In this document: positions 3,272 to 44,595 of the stretch, one piece after another
How the letters are laid out: the number at the start of each line of letters is the position of its first letter
Position numbering within the stretch: position 1 is the stretch's first letter
Source: Escherichia phage MRostami-2023e
Direction: 5' to 3' (one strand)
Sequence record: OQ031495
Length of the DNA: 64,000 bases
Notes under the pieces: model-generated
Seen by the model: the letters and a program-made list of their open reading frames with translations, nothing else
Database searches by the model: none
What the model was told of the DNA's origin: nothing
Program-made: the position numbers and the translations under genes

Positions 3272-3763
3272 TTATTCCCACCAATCAAGAGCAAGAGTTA
3301 CTTCGAACGTTTCAATCTCGTTATTAGAATCCCAATCAAGAGATACTTCACCAACGTTAGTAGGCCACAAGCCGACAATTTCAACTTCTTTAGTGACCGT
3401 TTTAGCATCACGAGCAAATTGACGAACGATAGCAGACTTTTTATATTCAGCAGGTTTACCACCGGTAATTTCATTACCTTGTCCTGCTGCAATACCTTGC
3501 CAATCAACAAATTTCTGACGAATGCTATGAGCATCATCGTTCATTACTGTAATAGTCCAATCGTCGAATGTACGATCACCAGCCACGTTAATTTTACGGT
3601 TCATATAAGAAACAGGAACCTTTTCAACTATCGCAGCAGGAAGAGCCGTAGCACGACACTGGAAGCTAAAGTTTTGCCCAAGATAAGAGATTTCTACTTC
3701 GAACAGGTTAGGGCGAGCGAAATCACCAGATTCGAAGGCACGAGTTACGTCATCTACAAACAT
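3272..3763 (-). CDS. 19: Tail tube protein gp19
   Basis: 163 aa (T4 gp19 163 aa); between sheath and portal genes. Confidence 0.9.
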   Translation of the reverse strand: MFVDDVTRAFESGDFARPNLFEVEISYLGQNFSFQCRATALPAAIVEKVPVSYMNRKINVAGDRTFDDWTITVMNDDAHSIRQKFVDWQGIAAGQGNEITGGKPAEYKKSAIVRQFARDAKTVTKEVEIVGLWPTNVGEVSLDWDSNNEIETFEVTLALDWWE

Positions 3764-8211: not shown

Positions 8212-9033
8212 TTATTGTTTTCTAGGACCAGGAGGGGTTGGTGGAGTCGGGATTGGAATATCATGAGTATAAGTTTGTTCAACTTCACCATTCCAATCTT
8301 GTGCTTCAACGTCTCTCGGTTTAATTTCTGTATCAACTGATTCAAAAACGCTGGCGGCTGTTTGAAGGTCTCGTTCATTAGCATGAAAATCAAGATAAGT
8401 CGTTTTAATAAGGCCTTCAGCTGCGCCTACCGGAGGATACATCCATCCATTTACTTCAAATGTTAATGACCACTCTAAACGTCGACGAGATAAATTATCA
8501 CCGTCTATTTGTTCATCCATTGCTGCCGCCATCCATACGACTTTAATATCCCTTTCAAACGGAATATCCTGCCCATATTGCTCAATCATAGTCGTATTAA
8601 AATGCGGCTGAAAATATGGAATAATTTGCTCAACGATTTGGAACATATCATCTTCATAACGAGTAAAGATGCTCAGTTCAAAAATCATTTTAATTGGTGA
8701 TGGGTTGTATTGGTCTACAATATCCTTAGTCGATTTACTCAAAAGAGAGTTATTCAATATATTCGTTTTAAACGTTGGGTTATAAACGAAATCTACCATT
8801 TGGAGATTTATACGTGGTAGAATAGTTTCGACTTTAGCCACATCTTCTTGTGAGTTTATAGAGGTCCATTTATTAAGTTTCATCATAAAGTGCTCTTTAG
8901 ATGCATACGTAATAGGAACTCTAATTAATTTATTGCCTGTAGACAATTGACGGTTAACTTGGATATTTGAAAACAAATCGCCCATCATTGTGATATATCG
9001 CCTGAACGACGAGTTGTAAAAATAGCCAAACAT
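8212..9033 (-). CDS. 15: Tail sheath stabiliser / tail terminator gp15
   Basis: ORF 8212..9036; start taken at second Met to match T4 gp15 N-terminus MFGYFYNSSFRRY (272 aa). Confidence 0.85.
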   Translation of the reverse strand: MFGYFYNSSFRRYITMMGDLFSNIQVNRQLSTGNKLIRVPITYASKEHFMMKLNKWTSINSQEDVAKVETILPRINLQMVDFVYNPTFKTNILNNSLLSKSTKDIVDQYNPSPIKMIFELSIFTRYEDDMFQIVEQIIPYFQPHFNTTMIEQYGQDIPFERDIKVVWMAAAMDEQIDGDNLSRRRLEWSLTFEVNGWMYPPVGAAEGLIKTTYLDFHANERDLQTAASVFESVDTEIKPRDVEAQDWNGEVEQTYTHDIPIPTPPTPPGPRKQ

Positions 9034-9085
9034 CATTTCTCCTAACCGGCCTTTCGACCGGTGTTTGCTTTATCTTATCTATTTA

Positions 9086-9848
<763 letters not shown>

Positions 9849-41811: not shown

Positions 41812-42348
41812 ATGACTCGTATCAATTTAACACTTGTTTCTGAACTGACCGACCAACATCTTATGGCTGAGTATCGTGAATTACCACGCGTATTTGGTGC
41901 AGTCCGTAAACATGTTCAAAACGGTAAACGTGTAAAGGATTTTAAAATCTCTCCAACATTTATCTTAGGCACAGGTCACGTAACATTCTTTTACGACAAA
42001 CTTGAATTTTTACGTTTAAGACAAATCGAGCTAATCGCTGAATGTTTGAAACGTGGTTTCAAAATCAAGGACACGACAGTCCAGGATATTTCCGACATCC
42101 CTGCCGAATTTCGTAATAATTATGTCCCGTCCGAAGCGTCCATTGCGATAAGTCAAGCACGCTTAGATGAAAAAATTGCTCAACGTCCGACTTGGTACAA
42201 ATACTATGGTAAATCAATTTACCAAGGAAAAATGAAAATGTATCAAGAATTTATCATTGAAGCAGATGCCAAAGGTCCTAAAGTAGATGTTGACGATATT
42301 GGATACGATTTTAACAACTTCGGAATTATTTCTGGCGGTAAAGCTTAA
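41812..42348 (+). CDS. denV: Endonuclease V (pyrimidine-dimer DNA glycosylase) with C-terminal in-frame extension into a CTS-bearing mini-ORF
   Basis: First ~136 aa match T4 DenV as recalled; ORF lacks a stop at the expected position and continues ...[17 protein letters not shown]... to 42348. Confidence 0.85.
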
Positions 42349-42351
42349 ATT

Positions 42352-42381
42352 GTTTACGCTTAAGTATTAATATGGTATAAT
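42352..42381 (+). promoter_or_regulatory. Early promoter (gtttac N18 tataat)
   Basis: seen in sequence. Confidence 0.6.
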
Positions 42382-42411
42382 TACTCTATCAAAACAAACA
42401 AGGAAACAAAA

Positions 42412-42729
42412 ATGAAAACATATAAAGAATTTATCGCCGAATCTGCTGCAGGACAACGTGTAGAAGGTGGTTATATCTGGATTGAACAAGTTGAGCCGCC
42501 AAGTCGCACTTCTACAGGTAAATGGAAAATCACTGTTGATGGTCCTGGTGGTAAACGTAGGACTCTTAAAGAAATTAATGGGTACTATGAAGAAGCTCTT
42601 TCTGACGCGGGTACTTATATGATGCAAATCATGATTAAAAACCCAGAAAATCGTTTTGCGGCTAGAGTTTTCCGCCGTATTGGAAATAAGCTTTATGATG
42701 CATATTCTAAAAACTTCCCTAAAGAATAA
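42412..42729 (+). CDS. Internal-protein-like gene with capsid-targeting sequence (MKTYKEFIAE)
   Basis: 105 aa; CTS N-terminus; own promoter. Confidence 0.65.
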   Translation: MKTYKEFIAESAAGQRVEGGYIWIEQVEPPSRTSTGKWKITVDGPGGKRRTLKEINGYYEEALSDAGTYMMQIMIKNPENRFAARVFRRIGNKLYDAYSKNFPKE

Positions 42730-42745
42730 AAATTAAAGGAAACAT

Positions 42746-42777
42746 ATGAAAACATATCAAGAATTTATTACTGAAGC
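42746..42777 (+). CDS. Start of another CTS gene (MKTYQEFITE), remainder N-masked
   Basis: 10 readable codons then N-masked run. Confidence 0.5.
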
Positions 42778-43217
42778 NNNNNNNNNNNNNNNNNNNNNNN
42801 NNNNNNNNNNNNNNNNNNNNNNNNNNNNNNNNNNNNNNNNNNNNNNNNNNNNNNNNNNNNNNNNNNNNNNNNNNNNNNNNNNNNNNNNNNNNNNNNNNNN
42901 NNNNNNNNNNNNNNNNNNNNNNNNNNNNNNNNNNNNNNNNNNNNNNNNNNNNNNNNNNNNNNNNNNNNNNNNNNNNNNNNNNNNNNNNNNNNNNNNNNNN
43001 NNNNNNNNNNNNNNNNNNNNNNNNNNNNNNNNNNNNNNNNNNNNNNNNNNNNNNNNNNNNNNNNNNNNNNNNNNNNNNNNNNNNNNNNNNNNNNNNNNNN
43101 NNNNNNNNNNNNNNNNNNNNNNNNNNNNNNNNNNNNNNNNNNNNNNNNNNNNNNNNNNNNNNNNNNNNNNNNNNNNNNNNNNNNNNNNNNNNNNNNNNNN
43201 NNNNNNNNNNNNNNNNN
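42778..43217. other. N-masked run (440 nt)
   Basis: run of n. Confidence 1.
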
Positions 43218-43381
43218 TATTTACATTCAAATAACATGGGAACAACCTGGACCTCATGATTCTATGAGGGATTCCCGCCAACCTGTAATAAGGTCGAGCC
43301 CAAGTGCGGTAATGGGTTTACATAGCGAGTCGAAGGACCTAACATGTGCCACGGAATGGCCCAAACCTTAAGAGAAATAAT
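43218..43381 (+). ncRNA. Non-coding, noticeably GC-richer segment with several short hairpins; candidate structured RNA (5' part masked)
   Basis: No credible ORF; cctcatg-attct-atgagg hairpin; composition unlike flanking AT-rich intergenic DNA. Confidence 0.3.
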
Positions 43382-43921
43382 ATGAGAACATTTTTAACTG
43401 GACCTTATCTATCCCTGATGAATGCTTTTACACACCATTCTGATGCTAGAGTAGAAGAAATTTGTAAGAACGGATATGTCCCACCATTTGAAGACGTACT
43501 CAAGCAGTACTGTACACTTCGTTTAGACGGCGGCCGACAATCAGGTAAATCAATTGCTGTGACTAACTTTGCTGCTAATTGGCTGTATGATGGTGGAACG
43601 GTTATTGTTCTTTCTAATACTTCAGCTTATGCTAAAATTTCTGCTGGCAACATTGAAAAAGAATTTTCTCGTTATTCTAGCGACGATATTCGATTCCGTT
43701 TATTTACTGATTCTGTTCGTAGTTTTATTGGCAATGAAGGTTCTAAATTCCGTGGATTAACGCTTTCTCGTATTCTGTATATAATTGACGAGCCTATTAA
43801 AGCTCCTGATATGGATAAGATTTACAATGTCCATATTAAAACAGTACAGTACTGCTGTAAAAGCAAATATTGCATCGGCGGTAATGCTCGTCCTCAATTT
43901 TTTGTGATTGGAATGCAATGA
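43382..43921 (+). CDS. Small P-loop NTPase-like protein (180 aa)
   Basis: Walker A GGRQSGKS, Walker-B-like LYIIDEP. Confidence 0.55.
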   Translation: MRTFLTGPYLSLMNAFTHHSDARVEEICKNGYVPPFEDVLKQYCTLRLDGGRQSGKSIAVTNFAANWLYDGGTVIVLSNTSAYAKISAGNIEKEFSRYSSDDIRFRLFTDSVRSFIGNEGSKFRGLTLSRILYIIDEPIKAPDMDKIYNVHIKTVQYCCKSKYCIGGNARPQFFVIGMQ

Positions 43922-44226
43922 TGACCACTATTGAAGTTTTTGAATATTGTTATAACAGTCCAGTATGCAATAAAAGGGCCCTTGTAGAAAATTACGAGAT
44001 TTACCATTTTAAACCTAAACGATATCGTTTGACTAAAGGTCCGTTCGCAGGGCAGCAGGTTCTTTGTACTGCTCCTAATGCACGACTGATGACTAGTATT
44101 CCACATTTCAAAATGGAATTTATTGATGGGCCATTTAAGGGATTAATCACTCAAAGTTTAATGGCGTTTAATTCCGTCCCATTTTTGATTAAAGAAAAAA
44201 CTTGGATAAATTTATTTTCTAATTGA
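43918..44226 (+). CDS. Hypothetical protein (102 aa)
   Basis: ORF track; ATGA-coupled. Confidence 0.55.
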   Translation: MMTTIEVFEYCYNSPVCNKRALVENYEIYHFKPKRYRLTKGPFAGQQVLCTAPNARLMTSIPHFKMEFIDGPFKGLITQSLMAFNSVPFLIKEKTWINLFSN

Positions 44227-44232
44227 GGTTAT

Positions 44233-44595
44233 ATGAAAGCATATCAAATTCTTGAAGGCACACACAAAGGCACTATTTATTTTGAAGACGGTACTCAAGC
44301 CCGGATTATTGTCTCTAAGACTTTTAAAGAAGACGCTATTGTAGACCCGGAAATTTTCTACGGTTTGCATGCCCGTGAAATTGAAATTGAACATCAACCT
44401 AAAGTTAAAATTGAAGGTGGTCAACATCTGAACGTTAACGTTCTGCGTCGTGAAACTCTGGAAGATGCAGTTAAGCATCCAGAAAAATATCCGCAGTTGA
44501 CCATCCGTGTATCCGGTTATGCAGTTCGCTTTAACTCTCTGACTCCGGAACAGCAGCGCGACGTTATCGCTCGTACCTTTACTGAGAGTCTATAA
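44233..44595 (+). CDS. Autonomous glycyl-radical cofactor (GrcA/YfiD-like; T4 Y06I-type)
   Basis: C-terminal half ...[60 protein letters not shown] matches E. coli GrcA as recalled, including RVSGY glycyl-radical motif. Confidence 0.9.

Follow-up and report, generated by a model that had tools for sequence, protein, structure and literature searches.

The 64,000 nucleotides of Escherichia phage MRostami-2023e that were analysed here (sequence record OQ031495; the whole stretch is called the window below) belong to a T4-like phage of the Mosigvirus/RB69 type, and the question that this locus raises is what occupies the gap between the last of its internal-protein (ip) genes and vs.8. The initial annotation had described hairpins in a stretch less AT-rich than its surroundings, and had read them as a structured, non-coding RNA, possibly what is left of an intron, or the 3' portion of a larger RNA that runs into the masked sequence upstream. 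The first half of that reading stands, the second does not: the gap holds a complete, self-contained element of ~125 nt (43238-43362, + strand), a genuine non-coding RNA that is conserved and pseudoknotted and belongs to no described family. The impression of base composition was also correct, with a G+C content of 48.3% for 43235-43381 (44.5% for 43218-43381) against a window mean of 37.9% (s.d. 4.2%), a value that only 0.9% of 147-nt stretches match or exceed.

The element and its setting in T4-like phages

The features of the locus are as follows.

42353..42381, + strand: early-type sigma-70 promoter, TTTACG-17-TATAAT with TG (10/12, extended -10; consensus match only)
42746..43217, + strand: last internal-protein (ip) gene, ATG at 42746, starts MKTYQEFITEA, body masked from 42778 to 43217
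43218..43237, + strand: AU-rich single-stranded spacer preceding P1
43238..43276, + strand: P1, the long 5' hairpin, A-type, outer helix GGGAA 43238-42/TTCCC 43272-76
43278..43280, + strand: 5' strand of P2, CCA, pairing with TGG 43313-15
43281..43294, + strand: H2 hairpin, ACCT-GTAATA-AGGT, paired in 100% of copies
43295..43312, + strand: 18-nt junction strand, C-GAGCCCAAGTGCGGTAA, near-invariant, kept in Tevenvirinae, Vequintavirinae, a Pseudomonas phage and uncultured contigs
43313..43316, + strand: 3' strand of P2, TGGG, with covariation
43317..43347, + strand: linker, with GCG 43325-27 at the pseudoknot position and an AAGGAC motif at 43333-38
43348..43360, + strand: 3' hairpin, GCC-ACGGAAT-GGC, specific to T4-like phages, ~20 nt before the next start codon
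43264..43371, + strand: 35-aa ORF overlapping the element, judged not a gene
43370..43921, + strand: SD-like AAGAG and vs.8, ATG at 43382, 179 aa, P-loop protein, PHROG 1488

The promoter at 42353-42381, ahead of the ip genes, is the nearest one upstream that would be able to transcribe the element, and no terminator was found between it and vs.8; the element is therefore taken to be part of a polycistronic early mRNA. The nearest relative of the window, vB_EQ1, is 100% identical on both flanks of the ip locus and differs only within it, where there are 761 nt in the window vs 541 nt in vB_EQ1; near-identical phages thus vary in ip cassette content. The vB_EQ1 counterpart of the last ip gene is annotated as 'internal virion protein', and successive ip genes of the window (42412-42729 and 42746 onward) each open with MKTY(K/Q)EFI, the MKTYQEFI start being the capsid-targeting leader. 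Upstream of these genes the denV of the window (41888-42348) no longer has a stop codon, and its frame continues into a leader that resembles that of an internal protein, the run-on gene being annotated in vB_EQ1 as a 226-aa endonuclease V, where T4 denV has 138 aa. Three genes downstream of the element, vs.6 (44233-44595) encodes a GrcA-like autonomous glycyl-radical cofactor (Pfam Gly_radical, E=2e-18).

A query of 147 nt matches 981 phage records, a number that rises to 1050 with a shorter second query, and the matching genera of Tevenvirinae include Tequatrovirus, Mosigvirus, Dhakavirus, Gaprivervirus, Jiaodavirus, Moonvirus and Gelderlandvirus; a locus search guided by the vs.8 protein returned six close relatives only. 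In T4 the same element occupies the denV-vs.8 gap of ~135 nt, starting at the first base past the denV stop codon and ending at the vs.8 ribosome-binding site. Copies in T4-like phages end 19-39 nt before the start codon of vs.8 or of an ip gene, with the first copy of the uncultured 172-kb T4-like phage L067 as the exception, and this position is accompanied by a conserved GCC-ANGGAAU-GGC hairpin, which in the first copy of phage SF has the stem GTGCCA/TGGCAC. L067 itself carries two tandem copies between denV and vs.8 (8968-9215) with no gene separating them, the first of which has a GUGAAA loop, a P2 of CUGG...CCAG instead of CCC...GGG and a different 3' hairpin. Copies like that of Citrobacter phage Merlin (L016 and L029) have an insertion of 33 nt (GAAGGCAAGGAGCCCAATTCGATTCTAGGAAGG) in the linker between P2 and an AUGGAC motif, so the linker tolerates added sequence.

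Two versions of the element, alike in the core but not in the 5' hairpin or the linker, are found in T4-like phages: the A type has a GGGAA...UUCCC hairpin and the B type, which is commoner, an AAAGG...CCUUU hairpin. Phage SF has the A type before an extra ip gene and the B type before vs.8, Klebsiella phage ValerieMcCarty04 has the opposite placement, and in the window copy an A-type P1 is joined to a core and 3' domain of the B type. Full-length matches to the window copy, that of vB_EQ1 aside, reach 88% identity at best, and APCEc01 and like phages (matches H89-H93) match positions 44-147 of the query only, at 96-100% identity. The window copy is a natural chimera, and it probably has no pseudoknot, because the CGC partner of GCG 43325-27 belongs to the B-type P1, which is missing here.

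The bases that precede P1, 43218-43234 (TATTTACATTCAAATAA), are a relic of the 3' end of denV such as accompanies A-type copies, a call that comes from comparing SF (L003, '...CCACACTGGTATAAGTATTAAGGCAAAAATATTTACATTCAAATAA') and JS09 (L002) with the T4 denV end. JS09 (2380-2517), SF (1935-2000) and the window all have denV fragments just 5' of their A-type copies; one of them is a 45-aa N-terminal piece annotated 'DenV' and another a C-terminal relic that ends ...HWYKY-stop. These fragments look like scars from the insertion of ip cassettes between denV and the element.

Pairing and covariation

The hairpin first pointed out in the window is real, with CCTCAT/GATTCT/ATGAGG at 43252-43269 (inner helix CCTCAT 43252-57/ATGAGG 43264-69) nested within the outer helix of P1, from which it is separated by an internal loop, CAACCTGGA. 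The folding energy of single sequences is unexceptional, MFE z running from +0.47 to -0.74 for the window, T4 and one B-type copy, and the case for a structure that is not due to chance rests instead on comparison, that is on conservation (981-1050 records) and on covariation.

The structure model was derived from the alignment and an independent RNAalifold run, and was tested on 21 distinct B-type copies. It consists of P1a, P1m, P1b and P1c, which together form one long hairpin, a 3-bp pseudoknot, P2, H2 and the 3' hairpin, the pseudoknot joining the internal loop of P1 to a triplet ~9 nt beyond P2 (columns 10-12:105-107). Among the 21 copies 97.2% of cells pair, a share that falls to 22-48% once the 3' partners are displaced by 1-3 columns. 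Eight pairs are changed on both sides, which only 2 of 500 shuffles match, the cells with a double change number 43 against a shuffled mean of 11.6, and the covariation score of 0.203 (0.068 for shuffles) is attained in 0 of 500. Covariation in relatives had been proposed in the initial annotation as a check on its structured RNA, and these copies bear it out. Five of the pairs, with the number of copies for each combination, are:

Pair 5:52, P1a: GC 15, CG 4, AU 1; broken 0
Pair 14:50, P1m: CG 13, AU 7; broken 1
Pair 11:106, pseudoknot: CG 13, AU 5, GC 3; broken 0
Pair 12:105, pseudoknot: GC 11, CG 8, AU 1, GU 1; broken 0
Pair 60:93, innermost pair of P2: UA 7, UG 6, AU 4, CG 4; broken 0 in B-type copies

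Over two covariation tests the innermost pair of P2 occurs as A-U, U-A, U.G and C-G with 0-1 exceptions, and when P2 and H2 are taken across all lineages (24 sequences) 0 of 500 shuffles are as good. Compensatory changes are also seen in the P1 of A-type copies, with GGGAG/CTCCC in L026 and L047 and CCTCGC/GTGAGG in L047, and in H2, with GCCT/AGGC in Proteus phage L192. Covariation support for the pseudoknot is confined to B-type copies, and the 18-nt strand has too little variation for pairing within it to be assessed. A further hairpin, 'H3' (GAGCCC/GGGUUU), around a GCGGUAA loop was considered and rejected, as 283 of 500 shuffles were as good, compared with 0 of 500 for the competing P2; the covariance model R1 was built with H3, which was later dropped.

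The + strand has frequent G.U pairs (57:96, for example, is UG in 11 copies) that would become A.C mismatches on the other strand, and the folded molecule is therefore the sense-strand RNA. That the element is a structured RNA of the sense strand, neither coding nor an intron, can be held with high confidence.

The loop of H2 has the variants GTGATA, GTGAAA, GTAAAA and ATAATA. The element is consistent with H2 being a GNRA-like docking loop, because the variants GUGAUA, GUGAAA and GUAAAA keep the G...A ends and a Pasteurella relative has GAAA. A GUAAUA hexaloop is also found in helix 44 of 23S rRNA, at positions 1093-1098 in the L11/thiostrepton region; the H2 loop is identical to it, with only these six nucleotides in common and a different surrounding architecture, and the likeness is a lead only.

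The core in unrelated phages and its comparison with known RNAs

A core of 45 nt, CC(A/U)ACCUGUAAUAAGGUCGAGC....G(U/C)GCGGUAA, is met again with hardly a change in unrelated phages. In all the rV5-like Vequintavirinae it lies ~500-600 nt upstream of the tRNA cluster, and in one subgroup of these it comes directly after a perfect TTGACA-17-TATACT promoter. It is found between tRNA-Thr and tRNA-Gly in Pseudomonas phage PsgM04F and, in uncultured contigs, between tRNA-Met and tRNA-Glu (L068), 170 nt past tRNA-Ile (L065) and 294 nt past tRNA-Pro (L054), the last of these being followed by an intrinsic terminator. In temperate phages of a Pasteurellaceae type it sits between a tail gene and an anti-repressor gene and is again followed by a terminator (L063, L064 and L066). 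Whilst the flanks differ between lineages, the layout is constant in all, a 5' hairpin followed by P2 and then H2, and the core covariance model scores 45-73 bits on all members, finding exactly one copy in the window (43276-43321). The genes 3' of the core vary and include vs.8, ip genes, rV5 ORF74, ant, a 629-aa structural (tail-fibre-like) gene and tRNAs, with none at all in some cases.

The Pasteurella relative keeps the helices, with GAAA in place of GUAAUA and a plain GUUG-UGGG-CAAC hairpin in place of the GCGGUAA stretch, and because the two features are lost together this suggests that the GUAAUA loop and the GCGGUAA stretch work together. The rV5-like RNAs (L030 8440-8630; L005 2425-2625) have a motif of their own at the 5' end, CCC(U/A)UAGAGGGCUUGA(U/A)AGUGC, which one rV5-like subgroup repeats on the 3' side of the core and which may be an alternative pairing partner.

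A host origin, or mimicry of a host RNA, was considered and set aside. A search of 5,426 E. coli genomes found nothing at E<=10, and among 185,579 species genomes the exact core occurs only in 2 unrelated MAG contigs, which score 22 bits compared with 45-73 for members. A metagenome scan with the loose pattern TAATAAGGTN{7,15}GCGGTAA gave, among the matches listed, chance matches only.

An Rfam scan, which the initial annotation had also suggested, finds no family at the element (Rfam 15, 4227 models). At E<=10 the stretch 42000-44500 has three chance-level eukaryotic hits only, at the gathering threshold the whole window has two tRNAs elsewhere and none at the element, and there is likewise no match at the element in the T4, rV5-like, Klebsiella-phage, Pseudomonas-phage and temperate-type loci. 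In L023, L028, L054, L065, L067 and L068 the tRNAs nearby are recognised by ARAGORN, which reports neither a tRNA nor a tmRNA at the element, where the corresponding Rfam models are also silent. In the literature on vs.8 and denV, on the core sequence, on the non-coding RNAs of T4 and on phage RNA motifs, the element was not found described.

T4 itself has two small structured RNAs that are G+C-richer and tied to its tRNA cluster, rnaC and rnaD (species 1 and 2). The core resembles them in that other phages place it in tRNA clusters, but in T4-like phages the element lies 5-11 kb from the tRNA genes; it has no sequence similarity to rnaC or rnaD, and in a 12-kb stretch of T4 that includes both (L048) R1 finds only 3356-3401, the denV-vs.8 gap.

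Possible functions

The best explanation overall, in which our confidence is about evenly divided, is a conserved RNA domain that folds independently and that in T4-like phages acts as a leader in cis. The cis-leader role taken by itself is put forward tentatively, at somewhat less than an even chance. The stretch 43238-43362 would be transcribed within an early polycistronic mRNA that runs from the ip cassette (denV in T4) to vs.8, the AU-rich spacer before P1 would be a plausible entry site for an endonuclease, and after a cut at that site the message downstream would be capped and stabilised by the compact fold, which would also set the expression of the next gene. The core of P2, H2 and the junction strand would be an autonomous module with a binding partner that gamma-proteobacterial hosts have kept, since the core is near-invariant across hosts; this partner might be a protein, for which RNA polymerase is one candidate, or else a tRNA or a small ligand. 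Autonomy of the core is indicated by its having its own promoter in rV5-like phages, by its position inside tRNA clusters or at most ~600 nt from them (PsgM04F, rV5-like phages, L054, L065 and L068), by the terminators that follow it (L054 and L063/64/66) and by the tandem copies of L067. Furthermore, the invariant core would serve as the crossover point in the shuffling of ip cassettes, because it is the only long identical stretch, and A and B types have indeed swapped partners in SF, in ValerieMcCarty04 and in the chimera of the window. Two observations sit badly with a leader in cis. The downstream genes differ, contrary to a single gene-specific regulatory logic, and three lineages have a promoter or a terminator between the core and the ORF that follows, for which reason a cis-leader role may hold only in T4-like phages.

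Another possibility, unlikely on balance yet deserving of attention, is that the element is a stable small RNA in its own right, a decoy or sponge that is excised from a polycistronic or tRNA-cluster precursor and acts in trans, for example by sequestering a host factor. Its same-strand position in or next to tRNA clusters in five independent lineages would fit with this, as would the strong promoter of its own in rV5-like contigs, the terminator directly after the core in L054 and L063/64, and a G+C content that resembles other stable RNAs of this AT-rich genome. The copies in T4-like phages, however, have no promoter or terminator of their own (within the element only a 9/12 promoter-like match was found, at chance frequency, and no terminator), and within the window antisense targets of the two conserved loops occur at chance level. 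The temperate relatives (L063-L070, Pasteurella Pmp2) place the element directly upstream of the anti-repressor gene, which is comparable to the C4 antisense RNA of P1 and P7, found upstream of ant; the Rfam model of C4 gives no match to the temperate-type locus.

It is rather unlikely that the 45-nt core (P2, the GUAAUA hairpin and GAGCCCAAGUGCGGUAA) together with the pseudoknot represents a new class of catalytic or machinery-binding phage RNA, which could be a self-cleaving ribozyme that processes polycistronic or tRNA-cluster transcripts or an RNA that docks on RNA polymerase, the ribosome or tRNA.

By analogy, the element might act co-transcriptionally in the manner of HK022 put, modifying RNA polymerase or blocking Rho so that transcription would continue through tRNA arrays, through long early operons or past a following terminator; we consider both the proposed mode of action and its proposed outcome doubtful. 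The put (polymerase-utilisation) RNA is a phage-encoded antiterminator in early transcripts that works independently of protein, suppresses termination in cis by way of the zinc-binding domain of the RNA polymerase beta' subunit and folds into two stems with a V shape and a triplex (PMC9378689). Like put, the element is a multi-helix phage RNA of similar size in early transcripts, placed after a promoter or ahead of terminators. Copies that come right after a strong promoter, that lie within untranslated tRNA arrays or 5' of them, or that immediately precede an intrinsic terminator with a gene beyond it would suit such a role, as would a conservation so extreme that it fits binding to a conserved host enzyme. 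Its architecture is nevertheless different, with P1, P2, a hexaloop hairpin, an invariant strand and a pseudoknot in place of the two-stem V and triplex, and no homology to putL or putR is seen when R1 is run with filters off against the whole HK022 genome, the best match covering 8 nt with 6.3 bits.

A compact pseudoknotted fold with ~25 invariant junction nucleotides is also what might be expected of a new self-cleaving ribozyme or of a riboswitch-like aptamer that processes or gates the transcript, and the patchy spread over unrelated phages, the multiple or tandem copies of some genomes and the order of folded domain, terminator and ORF in L054 and L063 are in keeping with it. The junction and the pseudoknot are followed in some lineages by a terminator or by hairpins close to a ribosome-binding site, with no alternative pairing seen. 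On the other side, there is no match to a ribozyme or riboswitch in Rfam, neither a cleavage site nor a ligand can be inferred and the downstream genes are functionally unrelated; we therefore regard this explanation as improbable. Another rival is a leader bound by CsrA, for which the pattern A(A/U)GGA(C/U) together with GGAA in the loop of GCC-ANGGAAU-GGC is present in A- and B-type copies, as a sequence pattern only.

That the element is coding, either for additional N-terminal residues of vs.8, which is how the T4 RefSeq record has it, or for a 35-aa micro-protein, is very improbable. The initial annotation had seen no plausible ORF; one of 35 aa does exist at 43264-43371 and is annotated as a hypothetical protein in vB_EQ1, but its frame is not conserved, it has no PHROG match and Pfam finds nothing in it. 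The sole frame without an early stop, CCT GTA ATA AGG ..., has an ATG six codons upstream in A-type copies and is open into the next gene in T4, JS09 and the first copy of SF, and in these only. Within its open stretch this frame contains no ATG in more than 20 members. In PsgM04F a stop codon immediately precedes the core, in L004B, L012 and L192 one stands three codons ahead of it, and downstream the frame stays open for anything from 4 to 213 codons; furthermore, the substitutions are compensatory for pairing rather than synonymous. In the T4 RefSeq record (L048, NC_000866, 64253-64912) vs.8 is drawn as a protein of 219 aa with its start inside P1, whereas other T4-like records and PHROG 1488 favour a vs.8 of 179 aa starting MRTFLTG, and the family is limited to this shorter protein, its positions 2-177 of 177 matching vs.8 residues 3-179. 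The 219-aa annotation of T4 is probably over-extended, which would explain the RNA going unnoticed in T4.

A block of homology at the DNA level alone, serving as a recombination boundary for ip cassettes and having no RNA function, would account for an element that flanks shuffled ip genes and has chimeric A/B copies, but it does not need compensatory changes, a tolerance of G.U on one strand or a covarying pseudoknot, and the core is also present in phages without ip cassettes, which together make this explanation highly improbable. PeSL (promoter-early stem-loop) cassettes were reportedly described by Arbiol et al. 2010 in the hyperplastic regions of T4-type phages. Like these the element is a conserved non-coding cassette that flanks shuffled accessory genes and possibly mediates modular exchange, and unlike them it is 125 nt long, pseudoknotted and common to phages outside the T4 group, and it has neither the strong sigma-70-like early promoter nor the terminator stem-loop that mark such a cassette.

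Finally, although high G+C and hairpins do adjoin the masked sequence, it is extremely improbable that the element continues into the mask, be it as the 3' portion of a larger RNA or as what remains of an intron, as the T4 copy starts right after the denV stop codon, the vB_EQ1 DNA that matches the end of the mask is an ip gene and the models of group I and II introns (RF00028 and RF00029) have no match at the element at E<=10. The same scan finds a group I intron in the rV5-like contig L028 as a positive control (RF00028, 81 bits), and no gene is split by the element, denV and vs.8 being complete and separate and the 179-aa vs.8 covering its family profile. The intron of L028 (3115-3418) lies ~3 kb downstream of a copy of the core.

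It follows from the comparison that T4, the reference phage, holds a conserved RNA that has no Rfam family and is labelled as coding in the reference record, and the gene model of vs.8 in T4 would be corrected. A core that differs by hardly a letter between T4-like phages, rV5-like phages, a Pseudomonas phage and uncultured ones, and that mostly lies among tRNA genes or next to them, points to a common and probably host-directed RNA function that is exchanged among phages. Crossover in the invariant core would explain the swapping of ip cassettes, which act against host defences, with the chimera of the window as an example, and the ~25 invariant nucleotides offer in T4 a concrete, testable target.
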